From Hormiphora californensis (taxonomy: Eukaryota > Animalia > Ctenophora): a stretch of 64,000 nt of DNA. Below are positions 5,301 through 59,044 of this stretch, piece after piece. Numbering within the stretch: the first letter of the stretch is position 1; the number at the start of each line of letters is the position of its first letter. Made by a program: the position numbers and the translations under genes. The stretch is taken from positions 2,976,001 to 3,040,000 of the forward strand of contig CM035358.1 in the NCBI GenBank assembly GCA_020137815.1. The letters run 5' to 3'. Below the pieces are notes generated by a model. The model did no database searches. It saw nothing but the letters and a program-made list of their open reading frames with translations, and was not told where the DNA came from.

Positions 5301-8300
5301 GTTGTTCAGTGTTCACTGCAATCACGTGATGATCATGTGACCCATTCTTTGACCATATATGGTCAAAATATTGTTCACATGACCTAATATACTGTACACA
5401 ATATTGTATTTACTCACTAACATTTGGAATTTGGATCATAATTTGATTGAATTTGGGGTACCTACAGCATCTTAACAGTTAGATGTAACGCCTAAGTGTT
5501 AATTGAATTAGACAAGGGTGGTACCTAGAGAAATTTGGGAATTTTATACAGTTAGAGTCATGAGTGTCATACAGTTAGGTGTTGAGCCCCCCCCCCCCCC
5601 CCCCCCGTGTTGGTTGAGGCCCAGGACCGCTTAGTCAAGCTACAGTGTGAGCTGTTGGAGAAGAGAGACGGTGAGATCATTGCCGTGCAGTCTACCGCTG
5701 AGAAGGAGATTAAATCTTTTGCTGGTGTTCTCCAGAAAAACTGTGAGACTGCCCTAGCACCGCAGCGGGTACGTCATGCTATTGCTGTAGCGACAGAGGA
5801 CAGGGCGAACAATGTTATTGTGCATGGTCTGTTTGATGACCGGGCTGAGAACGATGAGGATCTGGAGAACGAAATTAAGCGAGTGTTTAACAGTATGGGT
5901 GCGTGTATTACTGGTATTTCCAGTATGAAGCGACTTGGGAAATACAAGGATGGTTCTGACCGGCCTGTAAAGCTACGTTTATGTGGTAAAGACTTCCGAG
6001 ATCAAGTACTGTCCAGTAAGAAATCTCTGAAGAACTCTGAAAGGCACAAAAATGTCTACATTTCCCCTGACCGTTCTCCAGAGGAGAGGGAGGAGAGGAG
6101 GAAGCTGGTGGTAACGTTGAAGGAGAGGAAGGATGCGGAGCCGGGGAAGACATTTGGGATTCGAGGTGGCAAGGTGGAGGAAGTGTGAGAAACAGTATGT
6201 GACTGCTGTGTTCGAGTTTGTGTGTTGTAAGGTTTTTTGTGACTGGACTTTTGAGCATCAGAGCACCGGACTTTTAATTTGGATTAAGAACATTATTTTT
6301 ACTTTATATACTCTAGATATATTTGCAATGGTGAACCGCTCTGATTGCCGTGTAGTTTACTAGTTGTTTTTTTCTAGTTACCTATATGGTATGAGCGTGT
6401 ATACAAGTACGGATATTATTATTATTATTATTATGTATAACTACTCCACACCCCTCTTCAGAGATGTAACAGGATGGACGATGCGGAGTGGCACGAGGAT
6501 GATCAGGAATGTGAGTGTAAGGAAGAGGGAGCCAAGTTTCACATTGACCACTGCCACGGGGAGGAAGAGGAGAAAAAGGTCGGAGCTGAAAAGTGGTTGT
6601 TTGGAATTCTCGCAGTGGCTTTTGTGAGCGCATTTGCGGTGATTGGGGTGTTTATTGTTCTTCTACGACATCAATGGTGGTATGATCTGTTGTTGAGTTT
6701 TATGGTGGCCCTTGCTATGGGATGTCTCCTGTCTGATGCCACCCTTCATCTTATACCACTTGTAAGTGTATCAATCTTATGAGGCGGTAAATACTGCAAA
6801 ACCTTTGGAGTTTGGGTTTGCAGCATATATATAAGATGTGCTCTCGCAGTCTCGCCTCTCAACTGATTAACAATTGTTATTCGGTATATGTTTTTAAACA
6901 GTACTACAATTACTAAGCTTTGATCCCCTGCTGCAGGCACTAACGGTATTTCACCCCGATATAACCCCCTGCAGGCCCTGGGACTCCACTCTCATGACGA
7001 TGGAGATGACGGTCACGACCACGGTCATGAAGAAGAAGAGGAGGAGATGACAGCGACACAGAGAAGGAACATTACCATCGGAATCACAGCTGGGGTGTAC
7101 TTGTTCCTCTTGTTTGAGAAACTCATCCATGTGATCCTACCAAACCATAGCCATAGTCACGTGAGTAATAAGAAGCCGGTGTCTCACTGGCTCTAACTGT
7201 TTTGCTGTATCTATATCACATGGGATCATTATTGTAGTTTCTGGGTCTAATGTCTTTATTTTTAGTTTCTACATACCTGACTTCCTAGTACCTGTCTAGT
7301 GTCTACCTAGACCTGTATCTTTCTGTATCTACATTGTTCTCCTTGTTTTGTTGTTCACATTTCAAGACCACATACCGACTAGAACATAACTAGATCCAAA
7401 AACCAAACAAGTTTGGTGGATAGCCGGGGCCGGAGAAATTAAAAATCGTTCGAAAGTTTTGATACATGAACTTTCGGGGCCTGGGGTGCTGTTAAATTCG
7501 CGTTTCCATGATTATAACCAATAAAATTTTCAAACTATACGCCAGGAAAACTAGTGCAATGATCAAACATTAGTTCATTCCACATTATCATAAATACAGA
7601 TCCACACATGTCACATATATTTACTGTGCACCTAGTGGGTCGTTTCAGAGTCTGATAATAGTTTGATAATAATAGTGTGTTTTGAAAGACTGGCTGACTA
7701 TCATGGAAACGCGAATTTAACAGCACCCCAGGCCCCGAAAGTTCATGTATCAAAACTTTCGAACGATTTTTAATTTCTCCGGCCCCGGCTATCCACCAAA
7801 CTTGTTTGGTTTTTGGATCTAGTATCAGGCATTTTGTTATACTATGACATGCATTTTGTAATACTAGCTTAATCTAATAAACACGGATTGAGGATTCACG
7901 GAATTTTTAAATCGTAGGTACTAGGTAGCCTCATAATAATCGCAGATATCCAATCTCGGATATCAATCGCGAATAACTAATATGATATTAATCGCAGACA
8001 ACCAATCGCAGATAACTTATCAGTTATCACGAATCCGTTATAAGTTATCGCGATTTATTTCGCGACAAGTTATCGTGGTTAGTTATCCGCAATTGGTTCT
8101 CCGCGATTGGTTCTCTGCGATTATTCTATGATTTTGATTATTAGTCACGGATAATGATCACGGATAAGCATTAATAATCAGATATATCTGATAAAATCAG
8201 GTTCTAGATGCTAATTCGCTCGTTTCTGGGTGTTTTTTTAAATCGTCTTAAATTTAAGATAGTAATAACTCTAGATATGACTACGAATAGCCCCTAAAAT

Positions 8301-10604
8301 TGCAACAGGCCACCTAATTCTACAAAATATGCCTGATACAACAAAACTCGCCCCTTTCTAGATGTTTTTGAAAATCGTCTTATATCTATGACAGTCATAA
8401 TTCTAGATATGACTACCAATTATCACTGAAAATGCGGCAGTAACCCTAATTTTATAAAACAAATCTGATTCAATGTTAATTTAGACTCTGAATCGCTTCT
8501 TTGTAGGTGTTTTTAAAATCGTCTTAAATTTAAGACAGTCATACATATAGATATGACTACCAATTGTATCTGAAAATACAGCAGTTAACCCACGTTGGAA
8601 AAAAATGTATGATAAAATCATGATTTATAGTTTAATTTGCTCTTTTCTAGGCTTTTTTGAAAATCGTCTTAAATCTTAATACAGTCAGATGCCCGTAACT
8701 GAAGAACCGTAACTCGGATTTGCTTGAAATTTTGAACGTGTGTTCAAGATGACAAGGCAACACAACGTACCAAGCGGCGTGTTCATAGAACGACGGGAAG
8801 GTTGTCTAAGACGCCAAACAAAACTTAAGACAGTCATAACTTTTGTTATGACTGTCAGTTTTCTCTGTCCAAGCTTTAATACAAGGTACACCACTAGACC
8901 TACCATCTCCCAAAGTTTCATGGTGATAGCTTTAAAACTGTGGCCTCCATCGTGTACGTAAAAAGGTCGTACAATCAAGGTCGTTAGTCACGCCAAAAAC
9001 GGACATTTTGTCTAAAATACGACCATCTGTAGCGCAAAAACCGTAACTCCGATTTGCATGAAATTTTGAACGTGTGCTCTAGGTGTCAAGGCAACACGAA
9101 CTACCAAGCGGCATGTTCGTAGTACAACGGGAAGGTTGTCTAAAACAAAGTTGAAATTGCCGATTTCAGACAATAAGTATAGTAGCGCTGTCAGAATTTT
9201 CAAAAATTTTCAAAAATTCTCAAAAAATTTTTTTCCGCAATTTCGATTTTCCTTTTACTGGGAGGAAAGATGCTTGTTAGAGGGAAATTTTTGGGAAAAT
9301 TATGGTTGGGGGAAGGGAGGATTGGGCCCCGGGCGCTTGCCAGCGCTATGATGGTGATATGACGTATTGTAACTAAAGTGCACTATTGTTAGTAGGACGT
9401 GAAACAATAGAGGTTTACACGCCTGACTACTGCACTACACTGTTATTGTTATTATAGTGGACAGGTAGTGGAGTACTATAGGGTCAGAGATGAGAGAAGG
9501 ATAGCTAGAGATGGGTAGGAGCATACATGTGTTATGTAATTTCATTTAAAAACTCACTCTTCTGGAACTGCGGAAATGCCATCTATTTTGTAGTCACGCT
9601 CAGATTCACTCCCGCTTCTTCTAGTTAACTAATATATGCGACCTATTGTTACCATGGTTTCCAGAACCACACACTCCAATCATGCTTTTAGAAGAGGTTG
9701 TGGGGGAGGGAATGTGGCCATGCGGGGGAGAGAATGTCCAATTTAGTGGTCAATCTAATCTGTAACATCAGAAGGCTACTCTAGGCTACTGTTGCGTACT
9801 GTGGGGGAAAGGAGGATGGGTATTATTTTAATAAAGCCTAGAAAAAAAATCATTTACAACAAGGATTGTGTTGGGAGGTCTAATTAGGTTTCAACCTGAT
9901 GACTCATCAGGTGGGAGAACTGATTAGGAATAACATTTGTTGAAAACCCCAGCTTACTCAACAAAGTAACATAGGATCTAGAATAGTCATTGTTGTGCCC
10001 AGTTTCATCAACTGATAAGAAAAACACACAGTGTCTTGTTAAGATAAAGTCCGTTTACTCATTTTACCGGAAAAGAACACAGAATTCCTCGCTGATTTTA
10101 CGGCTAATAAAGAATCAGCATAATAATCTCGAACACACCCAAACAGATGTGTAATCAAGAAATATAATAAGAGAATGAGGGGCATCGAATTTTGAAGAAG
10201 TTCATTTTCTCACCCTCTCAAGTCGCATATAATCATCTTTTGCTAACACTCTTCCTCATCATCTATTCATTTCTCTCGTAACTCTAACACCCCTCCTCTT
10301 TTGTCTCCCAGGGACCAGCAGAAGTGATTGCCAATCCCAATGCACCCGGGGATGTGGAGATGAAACCTAATAACCAGGTAAAACAATGAATGTGAAATAT
10401 GATTCGTCATAATCCATGATTCATTGCAGCATGATTCGATTATCATTATCGACACTTCATTTATAATTATTATCATCTTCACGGATTGAAATCAGTGCTA
10501 TCGTTGTGCTGTTGCACCTCCCCCGCAATACAATGCTATCCAGAACCTTGTTCGTTTAGTCCAATCACTCCTACATATAATTCAGATAGTCGTATTTCTT
10601 TCTT

Positions 10605-20792: not shown

Positions 20793-23543
20793 ATGGAGCA
20801 GCAGCACTACCGGCCAGGCACTCCCCCAGACCTAGTTAGTTGGAGAGGGACTGACTGTATAAAACACGCACCCTGAAAGATTAGTTCTGATAAAATTACA
20901 ATCATCATGAGTTACTCTGCTTCTCTCTCCGCTACTGTTAGTGATAGTTTTAACACTGCTTTCCAGCCATCTTACCCTTCCACTTCTACTGCAACAACGG
21001 TTAGTAGAGTGCCTTTGTTCCTTGTTGATTTGTTTATCACTATTTCGCATCCAGTTGATACAATCTAGTAGAGCTACCTAGCTTCTACTGGTTATGCAAT
21101 GTTGTATTGTTCTGGATTGTTCTAACACTCCTTCCCCTCTCTCCAGGACGGTCCAGTGGAGTACAGTACCTACGAGCCCTCTCCCTCGCCTCCATATCAC
21201 TCCTTCAACAATGGATACCGTCCCTACCCTGACCAACATTACCCTGACCACATCTGGCACAATATCCATCCAGTTCCTATAGCCAGCTACCCCAGGACCC
21301 ATCTTACTACAACAGCTACCCTGCAGCTAGGGTACCATGGCAACCAGAAAAATGTTTTATGAAGGAGCAGCAGGAGTGTTATGATACAAGCCACCACATC
21401 TCCTAATCCCACACCGGTTGGGTCTCCCAATATTGGACAGCAACATGGATCACCTATAGCACTGGGTGATCAGGAACAACACCATGTGACACCCCCTCCA
21501 GCTCGGACCCCCTCCTGTTACTCATCTCCACCACCTGGTTGTGCCACTACCTCCCCACACTCCAGCTCCTTCTCCCCTGATTTCCATCAGCCATCGCCCC
21601 CTGATCAGCCTCTCAACATTCCTGGATCATATAACATTCAACCGTTCTACAACGGTTTCACCACATCGTATCCTGGCCAACTACCTACCGTTACTCCTGT
21701 ACCTACCGTTACACCTGTACCTACCGTTACCCCTGTACCTACCACAACGGCTGATGTTGCAAGGACAGCTCTCCAACAACTTACACCACCCAGTGAGGTC
21801 AGTTCTTGATAATCTCCCCTCAGTTTTTGTCAGTCCGATAATTCTGAATTTATCTCTAATCACCTCCCCTAACCACCTCCCCTCTAACCACTCCTACCCT
21901 CTAACCCCCACCACCCATTAAACCACATCTAACCACATCTAACCACCTCCTCAGACTGGCCACCCCTACATCCTCCCTCCTCCACCACCCGTTCCAGCCA
22001 ACATGGCGGCCCATCAGGAACAGCTCCTTGTCCAAAACTGCATGGTCGCCCAGTTTCTTGTAACCACTGGACAATTCGCCCAGTTCTTTGAGTTCGTCAC
22101 GACTAACCAGTTTAGGAATCAGGACCACACCGGTGTGCAGCAGCTCTGGCTGCACTGCCTCTACACACAACGTGAGTAGCCAAAATTGCTATTTAGTTTT
22201 GTGAAATAAACATGATAATAAGATTTGGGTCATTTGGATCATCTTGATTTTATCCTACTGACAAAGTTAGACTTTTCTGTTATCATTTCATCTCCCCTCT
22301 AGATGCCGAAGCGAAGAAGGGTGCCATCACACCAGTTGACCGACACAGACTACGGAAACGATTCCCCTTCCCTGCCAGTATCTGGAACGGAGAAACAACC
22401 ACCTACAATCTGAAACAGTCTGCCAGGTAAAATATTTGTCAAAAATTTAGATCAAATACCGTCAGACCCCGATATACCGGGCACCCCGATTTACTGGGCA
22501 AAACCCTTTCCCCCGATCATCCCGGTAAATCGGGGTCCGACTTAATATAGATCAAATATTATTTGATCTGACCTTACACGGGGCTTGTACAAGCACATAT
22601 TATTCACCCCCTTCCGTATTCAATTAGTTGCACCCAATCACAGTGCCAGCGCCCAATCACAGATCACTAGTCCCCCCTGCAGCAGATCCTTGTTGTTTTC
22701 TCAGCTTGTGTTTAGGTTAGCTCTCCATCCCCCACTCAAGGTGCATGTTTGTTTGTCTGTCTGATCAGAGAACTAGCTAAGCCTATCATGTTAATTGATC
22801 ACCAGTCATTAGTACGTGGTGTGGTTCACAGGTCCACAGTGATCTACACAGGTAATACCTGAACATAGTACACACATACAGGTCCACCACACACAGGTAA
22901 TACCTGAACACACATGTCATTTCCTGGTTAGTGTCTACATCATGGCACCCTGCCACGTGCACCAAACTGCAGTACCCCTGATGACGCAATGCACTCCTAT
23001 CAATTGCCAGGGCACGTACAACACAAACCACATGATATAAATTACACGTGCCATTCGGCGCTGAATACTTCAAACTAACTACATGTTTTCATTCCCAACC
23101 CGTTTTGATCCCCAACCCCGTTTCCCCACTTCCCTTTACATTTCCCTGCCTCTAACCTCTTTCCCCTATCTTCAGACGATTATTGGCCATATCCTTCTCT
23201 AATGGACCAGTACCCATCCAACGAAGAGAAGAAACACCTGGCTGAGGTCTGCGAAATGGACTACCTCCAAATCTGTAACTGGTTCAAAAACCGACGAATG
23301 CGAGAAAAGTGAGTAGGAAATTAGTTTTTGATAGTCTCCTGTTACTTCATCTCTTGTCCCGTCTCACGTCACCATTTCTTCTCCTGTAACTGACAATAAC
23401 CATCCCTCTATAGAAGATTACAGAACGAGGCGAAGAAGAACAGAAGGCTTGCCAATGCCTGCCCAATGACTCGGCCCACTGGCTCAAGCTCCCCGAGTCC
23501 CTCTTCCTCCTGTGAACATGCCCGGAAAATTGTTGGACGGTGA
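20793..23543 (+). CDS. Divergent SIX (sine oculis) class homeobox transcription factor; as assembled it has an in-frame stop and a +1 frameshift
   Basis: Exons 20793-20834, 21147-21797, 21955-22171, 22303-22426, 23176-23308, 23414-23543. SIX domain C-half: FFEFVTTNQF...VQQLWLHCLY...VDRHRLRKRFPFPASIWNGE. Homeodomain: TTTYNLKQSARRLL...YPSNEEKKHLAE...QICNWFKNRRMREK (K50). Confidence 0.88.
22461..22523. repeat. Short copy of the CAGTCGGACCCCG MITE family
   Basis: CGTCAGACCCCGATATACCGGG...CCCGGTAAATCGGGGTCCGAC matches the element at 30827-30998. Confidence 0.7.
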
Positions 23544-30826: not shown

Positions 30827-30998
30827 CAGTCGGACCCCGATTTACCGGGCCCCGATTTACCGGAACCCCGATTTACCGGGAGCATAATCTTCCCCCGAAA
30901 TAGGAATTTAACAGTATTTTACCGCGATATACCGGGCACCCCGATTTACCGGGCAAAACCCTTTCCCCCGAGCATCCCGGTAAATCGGGGTCCGACTG
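30827..30998. mobile_element. Tc1/mariner-type MITE (TIR CAGTCGGACCCCG, TA TSD)
   Basis: TA|CAGTCGGACCCCGATTTACCGGG ... CCCGGTAAATCGGGGTCCGACTG|TA, with internal CCCGATTTACCGG repeats. Confidence 0.9.
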
Positions 30999-46513: not shown

Positions 46514-49500
46514 GTGCCGTGTCTACAGTCATTTACAGATTTCTCCAGTACCTGGGACACTGATTGTTCCCAAGTTCCCTGTAAGATTAATCTGCCATGA
46601 CTGACTGCCAGAGATCTTTCGATGCTACCCTCATCACAGGTACGTGTTCTATCTAACTATCAACCCAGTCATCAGTTGGTTGACAAACCACAATTTGTTA
46701 CAACTTTTTGAATTTGGAAGTTGGAACGTGTTGATTTTAATGTAGGAATGACTAAGTAATGATTTGGTTCTCTAAATGTTCATAGACCCATACCGTGGTA
46801 CATATCTCTACTTACACTACCCATCTAGGTTGGATATTCTATACCTATTCCACCCCAATCTGCATGGCAGCCTTATTTGAGGGGACCATCTTCTCGGAGG
46901 AGAACCAGGGAGGTTCATTCACCATTCGATCAGGTACATGGCAGCTGTTTTTAATTGTGTATTAGGGAGGATGGACCACCCCCTTACTGAATACGGATCA
47001 AGAGGGACGGTCCTCTCAATATCTACCCTCTGAAGGTACAAGGTTCAGAGGGTAGATATATTTCTGGAAAGTATATGTTACCAGGCAACCATCTTGAGTT
47101 CTAGATAGATTACTGTCAATTATACCATGATCAAGGAAGTATATCACCTTTCTGACGGATCCCTGTGTATTTCAGGTGGTGAACTGGCCAGGTTCTACAG
47201 TGCGCCTAGCAAGTCAGTTCACGGTCGGTACAAGTACTCCAAGGCATCCAACACGAGTCAAGAGAGCTGGTTTATTGAGCCTTTTGAACGGTAGGATCTG
47301 GTACTATGTAGTTGATCTGGGATGATTATGATGCAAGATATTATCATATCAATAGTAATTCTCCATGGGAGTTTGATTTAAATGTTAAATCAACCCAAAC
47401 TCCCATTTTAAATGTTAAAACTATTAATGGCGTTCTAAACAGCTCACATGTGTTTCAGGGTAAGGTTTATAAAGGAGCCACAAGACACAATGGTGAAGTT
47501 GGGGGACCAGTTAACCCTGTTTTGTGAGGTTAACACGCGCTCTGAGGCAGATATCACATGGTATAACAATGATAAAGAGGTCTCATGGTCAACCACTGTT
47601 GATTGTAAAGGTATGTGCTACTTCTGAAGCTGACAAAAATGGTGTTACTTTTTATAACATGAACAAGTTGATGCAGCATGGCTTACACATTGGTGTACAA
47701 TCATGGCTTTCAGTAAGAGTTCATTGACACTCACTTTCGAATCCCTCTCATACGCAGCCCCAGCCTCTACCCCCTGATTTATAAGTTCAATTCCTACAGG
47801 TGCGGTGTGCATGGTTCGGTTTACAGACAAGAGTCATGCAGGCAGTTGGCAGTGTAAGGTGCAGACAGAACAGAGTGGCACCCTGATGAGTCGGTATGCT
47901 GATGTAGAGGTGGCCTACTTTAACCGGACATTTGTATACCAGCCCCGTGATGGCAGAAGGTATGATCCAACAACGGACATGATGGGAGGCAACATTAGAC
48001 ATGACATGAGGATTCAGGATATTCAAAAACTGTTTTATATTATACTAAGACCATTTGCCTCTCACAATTATAAGTTTATCAACCACTAGTTAGTCTAACA
48101 CACCCTCCACTGTTTCTAGAGCCTTCACTGAGGAGGGTGGCGAGCTGCGGATGATCAGCTCAGATCTGGAATGGCCCATGGTGCTCCCCTGCTCTGTTGA
48201 TAGTTACCCTCCCGCTCGAATAACTTGGTTCAAGAACAACCTACCGTTCAGTGATAGACACACCTTTCAAGCAAAGGATGGGAGTCTTTACTTTATGTGT
48301 GAGTTAACATAATTCTTATCTTATCTTATCTTATCTTATCTTATCTTATCTTATCTTATCTTATCTTATCTTATCTTATCTTATCTTATCTTATCTTATC
48401 TTATCTTATCTTATCTTATCTTATCTTATCTTATCTTATCTTATCTTATCTTATCTCATATTATCTTATCTTATCTTATCTTATCTTATCTTATCTTATC
48501 TTATCTTATCTTATCTTATCTTATCTTATCTTATCTTATCTTATCTTATATTATCTTATCTTATCTTATCTTATCTTATCTTATCTTATCTTATCTTATC
48601 TTAATTCTTATCTTGACCAAACAATATGCCAAACAAAAGGCCCTTCATTTGTTTGACATTTTCACATATATTCAGTCACTGTAGGTTGTTGTCTGTCCCG
48701 AACATTCAGTCGTGTCACAGTATGGTACAACATGATTTAAAAAAACATTTTTGTCTGTCTGTTGGTCCACATTTCATAGCTTTTACCCTGCTAAACTTAC
48801 TGAGGTGTTTGCATTGAAGTTCATCTGCACTGGTACTCCAAGTTCCATCTTCTTTGCACGAAACTTCAGCATCACCACCAATCAGGACATGCTTCCGGTT
48901 ACAATAGATTGTTATACTGGTTCCTGGGTCGGTGGTATTCCAGGATCCTTGAGTAGATTTAGTTACAGCAAAGGCAGGGCAGGTAGTTGGGGCTAAATAG
49001 GGAGAACGGGTGTGTTAGATGGAATTTCGGTGAAGTTACACATTTATTATGCATAGGACAATGTGTGAGAAAATATTGGACATGCGGACAAACTTTCAAT
49101 CATCCTTTGAATTCGCATAGCAATTAAGAAATAGAATACCTGCTTTGAAGAAGTCAGATGCTGTGTCATCATTGTCAAATCTGATCTGCTCAACAACATC
49201 ACCATCCAGCCTAACACAGCCATCATTTGAACTTTCTGCGAACAGGTAGTTCAGCAACGCCACATTATTACACGTGATGATGATGGCAGTCTTCGTTTTT
49301 GTGATCTTCCAGATTTTTTCCACCTCCACCGCGGGCTGTACTGGCAGGTCTATGGGGCCGTTGGTGCAGTGGTATATCCTATACTGCATTGGGGAGGAGA
49401 ACTTCACCGACACACCACTGATGTAGCTGCTGTCCTTGTCGTACATCTTTACTATGATCTTCTTCACGTTCTTACCACTGCCCAGTGTGCAATTCGTCTT

Positions 49501-52500
49501 TATCTGGAGAGGTGTACCCTCCAGGTCCCAGGGTATAACTACACCCTGCTCTACTGTTGCCCAACCTGAAGGGTAATAAATACCATCAAGAAAGAGGCTA
49601 TAGCCAAAATGTGAAGATTTCACGTATGGATTGCAAAGAATTATATATGCCATGATATTGTGTAACAAGCGATTACAAACCTGTTGATGTGGCTATGCAC
49701 CATAAGGCAGCTGCTGTCAGGACAAACACTGATGTCCAATGCATCGCTTTAATGGCTAACAGATCACATTCTACACAACTTTTAAAAAGATTGGGTTACC
49801 TCATATGATAATACATCTCTCTTTCTCTATCTCTATAGTCATATAGAAAAGCGGTTTTTTTATACAGGGGGCGCGGGGTCGGTGCAACAGCATAAAACTA
49901 TATTGTATGGCTCATAGACGAAATGTGGTCTAATGAAGTCTTTTGAGCCAAAGTTGTAGATAATCTTGTAGGAATTGAATGCCCGGATTACTCGGATAGA
50001 TCAAGCTATTGTAGAAAATTATACGATATAAACATATGAATTCACATCAAGCTTTGGCTATCATTGCCACGACAAACACAGCGTTCAATTGATGTTTAGA
50101 ATCTATCTATCTCTCCATAACCATAACGCATCGCTCAACTTGAGTTAAACCCCTATAATGGTTATCTCCCTTTTTTCTTTATAGTTGTCTCTATATCTCT
50201 CACTCCGTGACCATCCATGTCTGACGTGTCCGCGCTTGAGGAGTGCTCTAGCAATTCTTTGCCTCTGGTTATCTCTCCATTCTTTTCTATGTAACTCACT
50301 CAAGTATATGTGCCAAAGCTAATGGTATTGATATTTTTATATTTTTCTAAAATATGATAAAGCAGATCTCTCTCTCTCTCACTCTCTCTCTCTCACTCTC
50401 TCTCTCTCTCTCCCTCTCTCTATGTGTGTCTTTCTCTATTCTAACTTAATCTTTTTTAATTCTCATTTAAAAAAATTATTACTCTAATCTTAATCACATA
50501 TTATCTAAATTCTTATCTTAATTCTTATCTTAACTCTTATCTTAATTCTTATCTTAATTCTTATCTTAATTCTTATCTTAATTCTTATCTTAATTCTTAT
50601 CTTAATTCTTATCTTAATTCTTATCTTAATTCTTATCTTAATTCTTATCTTAATTCTTATCTTAATTCTTATCTTAATTCTTATCTTAATTCTTATCTTA
50701 ATTCTTATCTTAATTCTTATCTTAATTCTTATCTTAATTCTTATCTTAATTCTTATCTTAATTCTTATCTTAATTCTTATCTTAATTCTTATCTTAATTC
50801 TTATCTTAATTCTTATCTTAATTCTTATCTTAATTCTTATCAGCACTGACTGAGGATGACACTGGAAGTTATCGGTGTGAAGCCTTCAACTCTGTCACAA
50901 ATGAACCAAACAATATGCCAAACAAAAGGCCCTTCTTTTGTTTGACATTTTCACGTATGATATTTATTCACAGTAGACACAAGTTGTTGTCTGTCCCGAA
51001 CATTCAGTCGTGTCACAGTATGGTACAACATGATCTAAAAAAACATTTTCTGTCTGTCGGTCCACATGTCATAGCTTTTTACCCTGTTAAACTTACTGAT
51101 GTGTTTGCATTGAAGGTCATTTACACCGCTACTCCAAGTTCCATCTTCTTTGCACGAAACTTCAACATCACCACCTATCAGGACATGCTTCCGGTTACAA
51201 TAGATAGTTATACTGGTTCCTGGTTCGGTGGTGTTCCAGGATCCTTGAATAGATTCCGTTACAGCAAAGGCAGGGCAGGTAGTTGAGGCTAAATATGGAA
51301 AACGGGGTGTGATAATATTAGCCAGTAAGATGTGGAGTTTTAGTGAAGTTATACATATTTTGTATGCATTGTTATGGACAGGGTATGAGAAAAAGTTGCC
51401 TATGCAGGGAAACTTTCAATCGCCCTTTGAATTCGCATAGCAATTAAGAAATAGAATTGTACCTGCTTTGTAGAAGTCAGATGCTGTGTCACTATAGTCA
51501 AACCTGATATGCTGAACAACATCACCTCCTAGACGTGGAATACATTCACTTCTTAATAAACTATCTGTGAACAGGTAGTTCAGCACCTCAAGATCATTAC
51601 ACGTGATGATGAGGGAAGTCTCTGTTTTGTTGATCTTCCAGACCTTATCCACCTCCACCGGGGGCTGCACTGGCAGGTTTGTCCAGCTGGCGCACCAGCC
51701 TATGAAATACTTCATTGGGGAGGAGAACTTCACAAGCACATTACTGATAATGATATAGCTGCTGTCCATATCATACATCTTTACTATGATCTCCTCACCA
51801 CTGCCTAGTGTGGAATTCGTCTTTATCTGGAGAAGTGTACCCTCCGGATTCCAGGGTATTTCTACACCCCGCTCTACATGTGCCCAACCTAAAGGGTAAT
51901 AGATACCATCAAGAAAGAGGCTATAGCCAGAATGTGAAGATTTCACTTATGGATTGCGAAGAATTATGTATGTTCTGATATTGTGTAACAAGCGATTACA
52001 AACCTGTTGATGTGGCTATGCACCATAAGGCAGCTGCTGTCAGGACAAACACTGATGTCCAATGCATCGCTTCAATGGCTAACAGACATTCAACACAACT
52101 TAAAGAAAACATGATGGTTATGGTTTTTACTTTTTACCTCATGTACAGCGCTCATTCTCTATCTGAGATAAAGTCATATTGTATCAACAGAGTATAAAAC
52201 TATGTTAAATGGCTCATAGAAATGTGATCTAATGAGGTCTTTTGAGAAGCTATTAAATATATAATTATTATGCGATATGAAAATTTTAATTCACATCTAG
52301 CTTTGGCTATCTTGCCACGGCAAACACAGCGGTCACTTGATGCTAAGAATCTATCTCTCTCTCTCCACAACGCATCGCTTAACTTGAGTTAAATCCTTAT
52401 ATTATGTTATATTTTATAATTATTATCTCCCTTTTTTCTTTATAGTTGTCTCTATATCTCTCACTCCGTGACCATCCATGTCTGACGTGTCCGTGCTTGA

Positions 52501-52722
52501 GGAGTGCTCTAGCAATTCTTTGCTTCTAGTTATCTCTCCAATCTATTGTATGTAACTCACTCAAGTATGTGCCAAAGCTAATGGTATTAATATTAATATT
52601 TTTCTAAAATATGATAAAGCAGATCTCTCTCTATCTCTCTCTCTCTCATCTCCTCCGCCTCCGTATCGTCTCCTGCCCTCTCTCCTCTCATCTCTCTCCT
52701 CTCTCTCTCCTCCTCTCCTCTC

Positions 52723-52755
<33 letters not shown>

Positions 52756-55634
52756 ATGTGTGTCTTTCTCTATTCTAACTAAATCGTTTTTAATTATCAT
52801 TTAAAAATTATTAATCTAATCTTAATTACATATTATCTAAATTCTTATCTTAATTCTTATCTTAATTCTTATCTTAATTCTTATTTTAATTCTTATCTTA
52901 ATTCTTATCTTAATTCTTATCTTAATTCTTATCTAAATTCTTATCTTAATTCTTATCTTAATTCTTATCTTAATTCTTATTTTAATTCTTATCTTAATTC
53001 TTATCTTAATTCTTATCTTAATTCTTATCTTAATTCTTATTTTAATTCTTATCTTAATTCTTATCTTAATTCTTATCAGCACTGACTGAGGATGACACTG
53101 GAAGTTATCGGTGTGAAGCCTTCAACTCTGTCACAAATGAAACAATACGAAGCAGTCCAAGGTAAACAGCTCGAGCCTCGAATCCTCTAATTTTCTCCAT
53201 GGTAGAATCACTTGTAATTACTGTAGGCGCCGACCCGATCTGAGTGCACAGTCAAGGATTAAACCGGGGTCGGATGGGGTTTAGTCTCTAACACAGTTTC
53301 TTGTACCAGGTATATTGAAAGGAAAGCAGAGGCAACTAGTACAGGATCTATCCCCTCTGTTATTATATCTAATTCAGCACCAAGAATTACCGCCCAGCCT
53401 GGCGAGACTGTGAGTTTTTAACTATTACTTTCACTATTAACTTTCACTTTCACTAATTTAATTTTCGTCTTTCACTGACAACAACTTTCACTTTCACTAT
53501 GACACCTTTGTCCAAAGGTCACTATAACGTGCGTTGCCCGGGGAACGCCCATTCCTGCAATATCCTGGGCTCTACCAGATAATCTCCAAGGCGACACAGA
53601 AAGGGTGGAACAACCTAATTTTGGACGGAATCTCATAATTAAGAATGTCCAACAAGCCGATACAGGAGAGTACAAGTGAGTAATAACTAATACAGTACTC
53701 GGACCCCGATTTAGTGGCCCCCGATTTAGTGGCACCCCGTTTTAGTGGCAGGATTTTTTCCCCCGATATAGGAAATTCACATTATTTGACCCCGATTTAG
53801 TGGCACCCCGATTTAGTGGCAGGATTTTTTCCCCCCGAGGATGCCACTAAATCGGGGTCCGACTGTAATATATTATATGCTGAAGCTATCCAATATCTCT
53901 ACAACATTGTTCTGTCTGGTTGAGTGAGGTTCTGTTAATAAAACCCCTCATGGAACCGCCAAGGAATCGCACAGTCGTCTCGTTTTGGCCACTAGATACC
54001 ATACTACATGACTTTAATGTCGGTCCGGTTCGGAGAGGGCAGTCTTATGTGAGACAACTGGCTAGATTGGTTTGCTGATCACAAATCTCACTCTTTGTAG
54101 ATGCACAGCTGAAAACAAGTACGACTATGGGTATGGATCCACATTTGCCTGCAAGTTGTTGGTCATGAATGCTCCTGTTTTCTCCATCCTTCCCAATGAT
54201 GCCACCTATAACCAGGGTACGTAGCGGTGTTAGTTAGTTGAGTGGTTCGTGTCCTGGTTAGCAGTTACCATGGTACCAGCCATGATGTATTTGCTACAGA
54301 ATTTCTATTTCTCTATCAAGTTAGCATGTACTCGATTCACCTCATGTTTAGTAACACCACCCCACCTCAGGAGAGCGAGCAGTGTTGAGGTGTGGTTTGA
54401 GGGACAAGATTGGGACCATCAGCTGGCTGCTGAACGGGAAACAAGTGGAGTTGAGGGAGGGGAAACGGGAAATGGGCAACGATAACTTTCTTATCATCAG
54501 GTAGGAGAGCTTTCACTGAATTTGTAACGGTGCTAACATGACCGTTTTTTGTTGCTGAATTTAGTTTCCAGCTCTATAAAACCCCAGCTGTATTATCCCC
54601 CGCAATACACACTTACAACCCCCTCTCCCTCCCACAGAGACATGACAGTAGAAGATGTTGGCATGTATCAGTGTATTGGGAGTGCACTTGGAAGTGGTAA
54701 CCAGTTCGTGGTGCAGAGCAGTGCTTATCTGAGTGTCCGGTCCGGAGCCAAGATCATTGTTGATAAGAAAAATATGTTGAGGAACGCTGGTGAACGGATT
54801 AGAGTGAGGTATGTATACATTGTACAAGTGAAGCAGGTGTCGATATCGGGTCTCGGGATACAGGAGTATGTCAGTGCTGGATGTCAGCATTTGTAAAACT
54901 CACTCCGACCCCCCTCCGACCCAAGTTGACCGATCTGATTTGGTTTAGTTCCTGTATAAATCACGTTAAATTCGGTGATCATAGTATAATTCTGACATTC
55001 CCTCAACTTCCCGCCTTTTTTAGGTGTACCGCCACGGGCTACCCATATCCCTACGTGACCTGGTATAAAGACGACATTCCACTTGTATTCAACCAATCAG
55101 TTCGGATGGTAAGTATAGTAACCCCGTAACGCTACGGTACAAATCCTTTAGAGTTCAGCTTTTACAACTCCAATTTTCTCCAGGTGAGTGTCCAGGACTT
55201 TGTGATTGATGAAGCGGGAGGTATGGACATTGGAAAGTACAAGTGTGTAGCCCGGAACTCCCTTGGAACGGACACACTGACCCGGAACCTGGGCATTATT
55301 GTTAAAGCTAGTGTAAGTGTTGGGAGGACAAAGGCACCTCTCGCTCTCACCCAATAGGGGGGGGGGGCTGTTACCATGGTTACTTGGCACAGTTACGTCA
55401 TGTAAAGTGTAAAAAACTCTGAGTTGGAGAATTAGCCGCCCGCCCTTTATAATTTGCTCTCCATGCACACACCAACTAGCCAATGAGAGAAGAGAATGGG
55501 AAATGTATTAGCCAATAAGAGGAGAGAATGGGAGATTTAGCAACGAACTTCCGGGGCTACACTCACGCCTTTAGTTAAAGGACTACAAGCCCTTTATATC
55601 TAGCTAAAAGTTTATCTCTCTCTCCCTTTCTTTT

Positions 55635-55682
<48 letters not shown>

Positions 55683-58600
55683 CTTTTTCTTTCTCTCTCT
55701 CTCTTACTCATTTCCTCTTTTTTTCTCCCCTCTCTCTCCCCTGAGAAAACAGTATAAACGGAACACGAACCTAACCCAATATTCTCCAGGTTGACTCCCT
55801 GACAGCGTCTGATCCCCGGGGTTACTACCTGGTTGGGCAGAAGATAGTACTTACCTGCCGGGTCTCGGGGACACGAGATGTCAGCATTGCCTGGAGCAAG
55901 GACAACTCTGAATACCTCTCAGGTGGGTGATGTGATGTGTGATGTGATATTGTGATATTGTGATGTGCAGTTGTGGTGAAGTGTGCTATGTGATTTATTA
56001 TCTGTAGTGTTTTGTGTAATGACTGATGAGTAGTTGTGTGGTGTGATGATTCGAATTAGAGTTGAACAAAAGAGAAACAAGTCATATTGAACGCACAAAA
56101 ATATTTACACAATCGTGCACACCACGAAAAAGGGCTTTGTAGTTTATGCAAGGTGCTTATCACACGAAACCAACGATTACAGCTCAAGAGGAGTTGCTAA
56201 ATGATGCATAAACTAAGATGCTATAGTAGCTGACATTAGATGCGCCCAGTATCAAAAGTGCTAACTGCTGGAGTATTTGGATGTATTCAAGTGCTTTAGG
56301 TTTATCTAGTTACCTAGGTAACATAGGTACTTCATGAGTAATTTTGATGCATTTTGTATGAAGACATGCACAAAGTATCCTACTCAGTAGTCACTGTCTT
56401 CGTCGCTGTCGTATTTAGGTGGATTGTACCGCCGTGGCTCTGGCACCCCTGGAACGTTATACGTCACAAATTTGCTATAGAAACTTTCCTTTGAGGTTTT
56501 GAGAAACTTTGATGGAGCTTAGATAAGATATATTAGTCTAGATAAGATATATGACCTCGATTTTTATCCCAAACACTCATTCTTACCTTTTATTCCCTCT
56601 CCCTCAAAATTGATAATTCTATTCTCTCCCAGAGTCCCAGACCCTATCTTAGGGCCCTAGCCCACTCTAGATGACATCTCCCCAACAACTACTGGCCCCA
56701 ACAACTCTGGCTCATAGAATCAATGAGCCAGAGCCTTTGCTCTAACAGTTCCCCTCCCCAATGTCTAACCATATAGCTCGCAAGCATCCACAACATCCTT
56801 CACTGCTTTCTCCATTTTAGTAAACCGTTCTTCCTTGACTGTCACCTCCCTCTCTACATAGGACAACTCGTTTTGTTGAGAGCTCCTCTCTCGTTCCATC
56901 TTCTCGACTTCATACTGAAATGAAACAAAACATTGATATTGGTCAGAATCTGTCAGAGCATTGGCCTGACCCTATTCCCATTCAGCGGTCAGACCATTAG
57001 CCTGTCAGGTCAATAAAACATTAGGTTATAATCTGTCTGTTTTCTAGCATACCGTCTCCACCTGTTTTCGATTTTATAGATCTAACTACCTCTGCCCTTT
57101 GACAAAAAGTATGATACCTCTAGCTCGACATTCTCATTCTTCATTGTCAGGTTCTCCTCTTGAGCGGACTCCATCTCATTCTCAAGGAGCTTGATTTTGG
57201 ACGATAGCGTCTGTTTATCTTTCTGTGTCTGAAGAAAGAGGGAGAGTTTTTGTAGGAGCTCAAAATAGATAAAACCTAAAACTCGTCCAGCAGTACCACT
57301 GCTCTAATGGGCTAAAATTAGGAAATTTTCTAAGTCAGGGACTCTAGATCGAGCTACGATAACTATAATGATTGAGAATCATTCAGCCAGTATATAGTTT
57401 ATTGAATACATGTCTGAATGATTCCGGAAAACCATACTGCTTACAGTTGCTAGTTTCTCTGTTATGATTTTCAGCTCCAGATTTAGGTCGTCACATCTCT
57501 TCTTAGCTAAATCTCTCTGCTCCATCAACACAATAACCATGTTCTTCACTCGCTCCATGATTACTGCTGGTTCTACTGAGGGTGATTTGGAAATCAATAG
57601 TGGGGTAGAAATAACCCCTTATACTCAGTATCCGGCACTTGCAGAGCAGGAGCTCCTGCATGCTGGAGAGGAAGGGGAGCTGAGCTACCAATTTAATTAT
57701 AGTGTGGGATGCAGGTTCAAAGAAGCAACAATCCTCTCACTCAAGTGCTAAACTGAAACATGCAACATGTACAAGGAATATAGGGGTTTCTCCTGCTATA
57801 CAATACAATGCTAGGAGAGAACGGAAACAGTATAGGCGCCGTATAGTTGCGATGACACAAAAAACACACAGTGTACACAAGTTTTGTTTATTGGATTAGT
57901 TGATGTAAAACGCTAAACATTCCCCACATAAAACAGTACCTAGACATAACACTTTTATAGCACTTCTATAACACTATTACACTTACATCAATGTTGAATC
58001 ATTAATGAAGATAATATACGCCCAACGCAGCACAAACAAACAAACAACTCATTTTTTTACAATCTTCAGTCGTCACATATTTTTTACCCTCAACTAATAA
58101 TATGTTGTTCCACCTCTTCTCTAATCCTCCCCTTACCCTCCAGACAAATCGGTGATAAAGGAGGAGAGAACGGTTAGCAAGGGTGACTATGAGGAGGTAC
58201 AATCTGAGATCACCATAACAGCCGCGTATCTGGATGACCAGGGTTCTTACAGGTACCTAAATAGACAAATCAATCCTTTTGAATGATTGAGAAAGCAGCT
58301 TTTAGGAGAAGTAGAGCGAGATAATTTGGGGTGTCGATGTCACCATTAGACGGTGAACAGTCGACTAGTGATGTCGACAAAGTGAATGAAAAACACCTAT
58401 ACTTCCCGCCCAGGTGCTATGTGAGGAACCATCTTGGTGACTCAAAACGAGACATCAAGATCAGAGTGTATGCAGCTGCAGTAGCTCCGACCCTAGTTGT
58501 GGGTCCAATTAACACTGTCCTGACAGAAGAGAATAACATGCTGGTGAAGTGCTCCTTCACCGGGGCACCCCCACCATGGGTGATCTGGAAAATTAATAAT

Positions 58601-59044
58601 CAGGTGAGAAAACTGCTACAATTAGTACGGTGTTAGATATCGTCTGATCTCAGTTTTGATATTATCAAGTTAAATTAAAAGCAAAACAAACCCGCCCTGA
58701 AATCCAGGATTGATCTGGCATTTTTGGCCTTGCCCTCTCCCCCTAATCCTAAACTCCTCCTTATTCAGCCGGTCCAGCAAACTGAGAGAATCTTGGTAAC
58801 TGCTACAGAGGACGGTCTCACATCAAATCTAGTTATACGTGACGCCCGGCGTAGCGACTCTGGCAACTACAGCTGCGAGGGCCACAACAAGGCAGGGAAA
58901 ACGAATGTGGGCAGTTTACCAATTTCAATTTACTACACAGACACTGATGGATTGAGAAATGGGACTAACTCAACGAGATCGAGAGGTGTTGTAATGTCCC
59001 TCTTGCCGTGCCTTATATTGTTAGTTTTACTTCTTGCTTACTGA
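46514..59044 (+). CDS. Cell-surface Ig-superfamily protein: LCCL-like domain + seven Ig domains + GPI signal (contactin/L1-like)
   Basis: About 17 phase-compatible exons (46514, 46829, 47176, 47459, 47800, 48120, 53080, 53310, 53518, 54101, 54371, 54638, 55024, 55184, 55790, 58144, 58414, 58769). YTYSTPICMAALFEG...GGSF is LCCL-like. Repeated C...W...DxGxYxC Ig motifs. Hydrophobic C-terminus VVMSLLPCLILLVLLLAY*. The 5' exon is uncertain and there is a probable 1-bp error near 46588. Confidence 0.88.
48315..48615. repeat. (CTTAT)n microsatellite
   Basis: About 60 copies immediately after the Ig exon donor. Confidence 0.97.
48801..49744 (-). CDS. Nested antisense gene copy A: signal peptide + 142-aa beta-rich domain + Sushi/CCP domain
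   Basis: Exons 49744-49681 (MHWTSVFVLTAAALWCIATST), 49565-49140 (GWATVEQG...WDLEGTPLQIKT...DTASDFFKA) and 48992-48801 (TTCPAF...GTSITIYC...VLIGG...SCKEDGTWS....QC). All phase-1 GT-AG. 3' end unresolved. Confidence 0.82.
50505..50840. repeat. (TTAATTCTTATC)n 12-bp minisatellite
   Basis: About 28 near-perfect copies ending at a CAG acceptor. Confidence 0.97.
50844..50905 (+). pseudogene. Truncated exact duplicate of the 5' part of Ig exon 53080-53161
   Basis: Identical to 53080-53141 and joined directly to the start of the second duplicated unit. Confidence 0.8.
51097..52067 (-). CDS. Nested antisense gene copy B: signal peptide + 142-aa domain + Sushi/CCP domain
   Basis: Exons 52067-52004, 51888-51463 and 51288-51097. 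Same exon lengths (64/426/192) and phases as copy A; open frames. Confidence 0.82.
52838..53076. repeat. (TTAATTCTTATC)n 12-bp minisatellite
   Basis: About 20 copies ending at the CAG acceptor of Ig exon 53080. Confidence 0.97.
53693..53865. mobile_element. Tc1/mariner-type MITE (same family as 33876)
   Basis: TA|CAGT..CGGACCCCGATTTAGTGGC ... GCCACTAAATCGGGGTCCGACTG|TA. Confidence 0.85.
56384..57558 (-). CDS. Nested antisense short coiled-coil protein, tropomyosin-like (~167 aa)
   Basis: Exons 57558-57445, 57228-57118, 56914-56770 and 56517-56384 with matching phases. MERVKNMVIVLMEQRDLAKKRCDDL... heptad pattern; acidic tail YDSDEDSDY*. Confidence 0.78.

Follow-up and report, generated by a model that had tools for sequence, protein, structure and literature searches.

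The FREPs of snails are an expanded recognition family of invertebrates. The C1qDC proteins of bivalves are another, lectin-like, with many secreted, tandemly duplicated and variable recognition domains (PMC6835236). Galectins contain their sugar site in the concave sheet S1-S6 (PMC4734333). Heterogeneous duplications, in which two divergent versions are joined on one chromosome, are described from insecticide resistance in mosquitoes, where single-copy alleles and overdominance have been demonstrated (PMC6121789), and the genome of the ctenophore Hormiphora californensis has 2,357 nested genes in 1,654 hosts (PMC8527503). Here we analyse a stretch of 64,000 nucleotides of H. californensis (contig CM035358.1, positions 2,976,001 to 3,040,000; hereafter the window, with positions counted from its first letter), in which two small antisense genes, A and B, lie in one intron of an immunoglobulin (Ig) gene. 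They are a tandem duplication of a small, likely secreted protein. We consider it probable, with considerable room for doubt, that the differences between the two versions are concentrated on a single face predicted to bind, and that the versions recognise different glycan or other surface ligands.

The DNA of the window is of animal type, and its introns are short. Aligned globally, 48617-50905 and 50906-53141 proved to be one unit duplicated in tandem, as the initial annotation had proposed, and each copy carries one minus-strand gene with three exons (64, 426 and 192 nt) and GT-AG introns, all of phase 1. The units and their parts are the following.

48313-48616: (TCTTA)n microsatellite, left of unit A
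48617-50905: unit A, from the global alignment with unit B; nested gene A, upstream region, 12-bp satellite and host exon stub
49744-49681, minus strand: gene A exon 1, hydrophobic and signal-peptide-like; 14 of 20 amino acids are those of the N-terminus of Pleurobrachia secretory peptide-52 (P0068)
49565-49140, minus strand: gene A exon 2, 426 nt, family domain, predicted galectin-type β-sandwich
48992-48801, minus strand: gene A exon 3, Sushi domain, GTAAGT donor at its end
50505-50840: 12-bp satellite preceding the exon stub; second copy at about 52840-53076
50844-50905, plus strand: truncated copy of a host Ig exon (the stub), 62 nt, identical to 53080-53141
50905-50906: junction of the duplication, seen in the sequence (unique here, about 1 nt of microhomology) and in contigs of the DNA runs X1, X2 and X5
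50906-53141: unit B, from the global alignment with unit A; its end falls inside the true host exon
52067-52004, minus strand: gene B exon 1, the same as exon 1 of gene A
51888-51463, minus strand: gene B exon 2, 426 nt, family domain, 67% amino acid identity to A
51288-51097, minus strand: gene B exon 3, Sushi domain, GTAAGT donor at its end
53080-53161, plus strand: true host exon, second half of an Ig domain (D-x-G-x-Y-x-C)

The frames and splice sites are intact in both genes, and the Sushi domain (Pfam PF00084) is above the gathering score in both, 27.2 and 28.7 bits as compared to 20.7. The earlier description of intact three-exon genes holds to this extent, with three exons as a minimum; a further small 3' exon is likely, because a canonical GTAAGT donor closes exon 3 in both copies, and reading on past it gives frames that differ between the copies by a 1-nt indel. 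The product of each gene is most likely secreted, with a length of some 205 residues or a little above. The donor of the B Sushi exon and the acceptor of the A domain exon (51096 to 49566, minus strand) are both of phase 1, and a chimeric domain-Sushi-domain-Sushi transcript, as in P0069, is possible. On the 5' side of the nested genes, a noncoding block (50154-50310 and 52415-52571) is 94% identical between the copies and has raised contig depth; it is likely a dispersed repeat, and looks exon-like on the plus strand.

Exon 1 has no differences between A and B (0/64 nt), and the stub has none to the true host exon (0/63, counting 62 exon nt and the acceptor G), which agrees with the identity that the initial annotation reported for both. 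In exon 2, 74 of 414 aligned nucleotides and 45 of 137 amino acids differ. The reported compensating codon indels were also found, as four regions of 9, 6, 3 and 6 nt, each a multiple of three and together net zero, by which both copies keep 426 nt. This exact length was considered as a constraint and dismissed, for the domain is not of constant length among relatives, and the indels merely add up to zero. The view that the divergence is centred on exon 2 needs to be modified, for intron 2 (23/147 nt) and the region of about 300 nt upstream of the ATG (31/210) have diverged as well. Intron 1 differs at 9 of 115 nt, exon 3 at 15 of 192, and the noncoding DNA right before the satellite at 5 of 83.

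The domain encoded by the 142 codons of exon 2 belongs, from its homologs, to a very large and apparently undescribed ctenophore family, which the initial annotation had not recognised. We found 65 homologous proteins of about the same length and another 20 that are longer, and a profile search gave 1,658 clusters (50% identity) at E≤0.001 and 1,071 at E≤1e-10. Copies A and B match the family profile over its positions 1-139 with E-values of 2.5e-67 and 7.6e-65, which is partly circular as both are in the seed; independent homolog matches of the domain reach down to E 4e-55. Six residues are invariant in the family (E15, C66, K89, T90, C98 and C116). The relatives have one to five copies of the domain, combined with Sushi, TSP1 or ephrin-receptor-like modules, and Sushi was present in 15 of the 31 long relatives scanned. 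The own-species reads gave 44-63 distinct contigs per run, at a likeness of at least 85%, over positions 51592 and 51643, the most covered of exon 2. Six distant relatives came from metagenome loci, with 32-43% identity, too distant for codon tests. Ten names were checked among the best 150 of the 1,658 clusters, and the five with a species name were from Bolinopsis microptera (three) and Pleurobrachia bachei (two); the family is likely restricted to ctenophores.

Ten members of the family (7 of the 65 and 3 of the 20) are P. bachei proteins recorded as 'putative secretory peptide', a name only, to which no fold or function is assigned. These are numbers 1, 15, 39, 41, 43, 44, 51, 52, 54 and 55, with the same domain at 53-69% identity. 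Among the proteins compared, secretory peptide-52 (UniProt M4H1E2, P0068) is most similar to A and B in its signal region and Sushi domain, and differs in having three domain repeats where A and B have one each. The gene model P0066 of Pleurobrachia has an internal second signal-like segment, which suggests that tandem genes of the family were fused by annotation. The numbered Pleurobrachia series is presumably a candidate neuropeptide set. Ctenophore secretory peptides are treated as signalling candidates in the accessible text of PMC4685580, where a galectin-type fold is not brought up. Among the papers listed by literature searches, none was seen to describe the domain, the fold or the variable face; subscription papers (such as that on the 2014 Pleurobrachia genome) and supplements may do so.

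The domain is predicted to fold as a galectin-type β-sandwich. The AlphaFold2 model (57 sequences) has a pLDDT of 94.6 and a pTM of 0.87; of its eleven strand elements, two are short. In Foldseek, each of the 44 rows shown was a galectin or a lectin of galectin type (best E 9e-5, TM 0.50-0.61), and in VIA the ranks 1-13 were galectin-fold lectins. The top match there was human galectin-4C (4ylz; Z 10.6, rmsd 3.5 Å, 127 aligned), with an alignment that is colinear across 1-141, the whole domain. The likeness to galectins (PF00337; human galectin-4C, 4ylz, and the sponge galectin 4agg) is found in this full-length colinear sandwich, predicted here, and in that the A/B family varies on the strands that match the galectin sugar-binding sheet. 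The binding face is conserved in galectins, whereas it is hypervariable in the A/B family, and the identity is 6-15%. Unlike galectins, the family also has a signal-like exon, conserved cysteines and a Sushi partner. Galectins are usually without signal peptides, and their strands run in the order S1-F2-S3-S4-S5-S6-F3-F4-F5-S2-F1.

Some observations weigh against the assignment to galectins. The galectin motif H-x-N-x-R is absent from A, B and all 55 relatives. There is no link at the sequence level; Pfam gave no consistent match for the domain in any of the 57 members (0/57), PF12248 and the galectin family included, and the domain had no matches in PDB profile searches at E≤10. Other folds of the ConA type are close behind in VIA, namely an invertase (Z 9.2) and a GH16 laminarinase (Z 9.0), and the atlas puts Methyltransf_FA (0.91) above Gal-bind_lectin (0.87), both weak. 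In addition, the faces were named from the strand order and not from model coordinates, with the model strands assigned by inference. Methyltransf_FA (PF12248) members are the best named atlas neighbours of copy B, 0.89-0.91, a lead only at their low shared-feature count. The unfiltered atlas matches, at 0.92-0.94, were unnamed clusters, a coronavirus spike fragment cluster, the PelX N-terminal domain and a sialidase-like CBM; their shared-feature counts are low as well, and they serve as leads only. Position 70 is aromatic in 37 of the 55 relatives, W in B and P in A, and would lie near the place of the galectin Trp. In galectin-4N the conserved binding residues (H-x-N-x-R, N, W and E-x-R) are His63, Asn65, Arg67, Asn77, Trp84, Glu87 and Arg89 (PMC4734333); of this set, the domain partly retains only the aromatic of position 70. 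The domain would at best be a galectin-fold binder, and is not a galectin by family definition.

Along the predicted strands, variable and conserved positions alternate. Entropy was taken from the 57-sequence alignment with A and B left out, that is, from the 55 relatives. It reached 3.1-3.9 bits at the S-strand positions 35, 37, 39, 50, 52, 62, 64, 128 and 130, and was 0.1-1.4 bits at the strand residues in between (36, 38, 51, 53, 61, 63, 127 and 129). With the inward or outward parity of the strand positions set by hydrophobicity, the mean entropy was 2.63 bits for outward S positions, 1.24 for inward S and 0.59 for the outward F sheet (p=4e-5). The direction was the same for 196 domains of a 200-domain realignment, gappy around positions 31-36 (S-out 3.15, F-out 1.60 bits).

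The amino acid differences between A and B follow this pattern, as they occur at 15 of the 23 hypervariable positions compared to 30 of the 114 others (p=5e-4). At the hypervariable sites, 22 of 46 first and second codon positions differ (48%), as compared to 4 of 38 four-fold sites (10.5%; p=3e-4) and to intron 2 (p=3e-5). Away from indels the count is 13 of 30 (p=4e-3 against the four-fold sites, p=2e-3 against intron 2). Codons 50, 52, 62, 64 and 65 have two to three changes each, while codons 51, 53, 61, 63 and 66 are identical. The best reading of this pattern is selection for change on one predicted face, here or in donor paralogs, because sites without constraint would be expected to diverge neutrally, and a conversion tract cannot leave out every other codon. 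The diversifying selection suggested by the initial annotation for a variable recognition locus is thereby narrowed to a subset of codons.

For exon 2 as a whole the same suggestion was not borne out. The dN/dS is 1.07, not above 1 (dN 0.215, dS 0.202; bootstrap 95% interval of dN-dS -0.11 to +0.11), which does not support positive selection on the whole exon, and the comparison with intron rates gave a divided answer, exon 2 exceeding intron 1 and failing against intron 2. Further points also speak against selection for change. First and second positions of the framework differ at 12-13%, no lower than the four-fold sites, which number only 38, and each copy departs from the consensus at 6 of 59 conserved positions, where the family median is 4 (quartiles 2-6). 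Because of these two observations the constraint between A and B may be partly relaxed, and purifying selection looks weak. In a quick, star-like protein tree A and B are sisters with a support of only 49.

It could then be argued that A and B are drifting birth-and-death members under relaxed constraint, with patchwork conversion from many paralogs, and that their differences are not adaptive here. A dN/dS of about 1, framework changes at the neutral rate and the divergence of intron 2 and the upstream region would all be expected from this, as would the substitutions at near-invariant sites (25, 78, 102 and 139 in A, 14 in B) and the identity of A to B, 67%, which is no closer than that to other members (up to 69%). 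We nevertheless find it improbable, since neither the frames nor the splice sites nor any of the three invariant cysteines is disrupted, each of the four indel regions keeps the frame, and conversion tracts cannot make multi-base changes in alternate codons with identical codons between them. Changes imported from paralogs would, moreover, still reflect selection in the family.

Another question is whether the two copies are real neighbours. The initial annotation had raised the possibility of two alleles assembled in tandem, and an assembler could have concatenated two haplotypes of one locus; the functional-looking exon ends are identical, satellites lie at the flanks, and ctenophore heterozygosity is high, 3.2% in Hormiphora (PMC8527503). 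We placed four DNA runs (X1, X2, X5 and X6) on 50843-51030, of which X1 and X2 are from sample S1 and X5 is from sample S2, of separate studies. Contigs cross the junction in X1 (60 nt, 50876-50935, depth 55 as compared to 46 for the true-exon branch), X2 (135 nt, 50876-51010, depth 410 to 409) and X5 (58 nt, 50876-50933, depth 143 to 389), where the true-exon depths of X1 and X2 were obtained by subtraction in the depth table. The depths of junction and true host exon are about 1:1 in sample S1, and in all four runs the true exon also continues, as a loose end. At 50976 and 50980, the full depth of the B-type contigs in X1, X2 and X5 has letters other than those of the window, and in X1/X3 such contigs also depart from it at 52138-52193; these runs are therefore unlikely to be the window's own source. 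Since junction contigs come from two samples of two studies, and the junction lies in unique sequence, an artefact is largely refuted and we regard it as extremely improbable.

Not all of the read evidence is in favour of a duplication. The junction contigs have 30 letters on the left, one below the 31-letter bridging rule, as a branch in a 31-mer graph would yield, and contig depth is not the same as copy number. No junction contig was found in X6, where a 545-nt contig passes unbranched through the exon, and its depth at 51025-51030, about twice that of the exon, fits neither a plain single-copy nor a duplicated haplotype. The lack of a junction in X6, together with the lower junction depth in X5, hints that the duplication is not fixed. 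One X1 contig (51411-51673) is B-like with 20 gap letters over the boundary region of intron 2 and exon 2, possibly from a further, maybe broken, allele.

It is likely, as the simplest reading of the sequence, that A and B split first and were later joined on one chromosome. Their divergence appears older than the duplication because the co-duplicated stub is undiverged, with 0 of 63 differences as compared to 6.8% in the five least-diverged flanking segments (P=0.012). A and B would have diverged either while maintained for long as alleles or by exchanging sequence with paralogs, and a subsequent break-and-join would have put both versions on one chromosome and widened the repertoire of the carriers. 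The notion of two divergent alleles may in this sense be true biologically. The likeness to the mosquito duplications is that two divergent versions are joined on one chromosome in both; in the mosquitoes single-copy alleles and overdominance are demonstrated, whereas the Hormiphora counterpart is presumed (PMC6121789).

An opposite order of events, which we hold to be possible but doubtful, starts from an older duplication. A and B would have diverged only afterwards, where they now lie, and gene conversion, or a role as an extra spliced exon, would have preserved the identity of the stub. The stub is identical in three genomes, and a B-specific GTATGA donor at 50955 could make it a 111-nt extra host exon (50844-50954), in frame and phase 1 at both ends. 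B alleles of other individuals already differ from the B of the window by about 0-2% (0/170, 1/145, 4/202 and 2/105; long pieces shown). Against this stand the noncoding DNA just before the satellite, which does differ (5 of 83 nt), and the lower junction depth in X5 and lack of a junction in X6, which hint at a duplication that is not fixed. The choice concerns the order of events only.

The host of the two genes was reconstructed as follows.

47460-59044, plus strand: Ig-coding part of the host gene, of multi-Ig (I-set) type, with an approximate start; near 59044 it ends in a hydrophobic tail and a stop
48120-48298, plus strand: host exon, first half of an Ig domain
48299-53079, plus strand: host intron of 4,781 nt, which splits one Ig domain and contains both nested genes

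The exons flanking 48299-53079 read, when joined, as a continuous Ig frame, which confirms the nesting antisense within an intron of an Ig gene, and Ig families were matched in 8 of the 10 host-strand open reading frames (ORFs) tested. The stub has an intact acceptor and is without the last 20 nt and the donor of the true exon. The host protein is likely GPI-anchored, because a hydrophobic tail and a stop close the gene. A likely second nested antisense gene, with coiled-coil-like ORFs, lies in another intron of the same host (approximately 56765-57750, minus strand); its ORFs gave only a weak MOZART1 match (E 0.0018).

The initial annotation had compared the locus to allorecognition, and the extreme variability and the site within a cell-surface Ig gene could be taken to suggest an allorecognition or gamete-recognition locus that is functionally linked to the Ig host. 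No tie between the nested pair and the host was found other than location, and no membrane anchor in the three exons found. The family is not a single polymorphic locus, its copies being many and dispersed, and nesting is common in Hormiphora, the same host having another likely antisense gene. A role of this kind thus lacks specific support, and we think it very unlikely. The antisense placement in a single host intron is that of the nested intronic genes described for H. californensis (PMC8527503), and the nesting is an ordinary part of the locus in ctenophores. The Ig host would be a landing site and not a partner.

If the predicted fold is correct, the scaffold would be fixed and the variable concave face, equivalent to the S-face of galectins, would bind surface glycans or other ligands, with the Sushi domain as a stalk or docking module. 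The repertoire would grow by duplication and by shuffling of phase-1 exons. The diversifying selection would be driven by the turnover of non-self targets; microbes or parasites are the most likely ones, and prey is possible. We place recognition of non-self (microbe or parasite) first, and adhesion to prey comes second. In the latter case the proteins would act in prey capture or adhesion, in colloblast or tentacle secretion, and the variable face would track the surface chemistry of the prey. Among the colloblast candidates of Mnemiopsis, signal peptides, ctenophore-specific genes and sushi/lectin terms are over-represented (PMC6278862), and members of the family occur as multivalent tandem repeats with Sushi spacers. 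However, a fast turnover of alternate codons between near-neighbour copies is more typical of host-pathogen conflict, and we consider prey capture rather unlikely.

A wider interpretation is that ctenophores made a galectin-fold domain with one hypervariable sheet into a large variable-recognition repertoire of independent origin, and that the locus joins two old balanced alleles by a still-segregating duplication. We put this forward tentatively, as less likely than not to hold in full. The repertoire would consist of hundreds of secreted, exon-shuffled modules, and carriers of the duplication would be permanent heterozygotes. The bivalve C1qDC proteins offer a parallel in their many secreted, tandemly duplicated and variable domains, with another fold and in another phylum, and with a function that is shown there and predicted here (PMC6835236).

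Elsewhere in the window, a short G+C-rich, MITE-like repeat family occurs at 22466-22542, 30830-30997 and 53699-53864. There is also a perfect inverted repeat of 124 nt with a 187-nt spacer (7389-7823), a series of diverged tandem repeats of about 132-145 nt (8184-9146), and an ORF with a homeodomain-like WFKNRR motif at its end (23109-23309, minus strand).

The duplication itself is real but modest, and its value is that it exposes an apparently undescribed galectin-fold variable family. It may be a natural example, from outside insecticide resistance, of the heterogeneous duplication of Haldane, and A and B are two natural variants in an almost identical context, suited to a direct comparison of specificity. 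At least ten 'putative secretory peptides' of Pleurobrachia can be re-read as folded binding modules, not peptide precursors. In its accessible text, the ctenophore immune survey covers Pfam-defined domains only (PMC11797021), and a family without a Pfam model would be invisible to such counts. A galectin-fold scaffold with one hypervariable face would be a testable candidate for the recognition of non-self or prey in an early-branching animal lineage.

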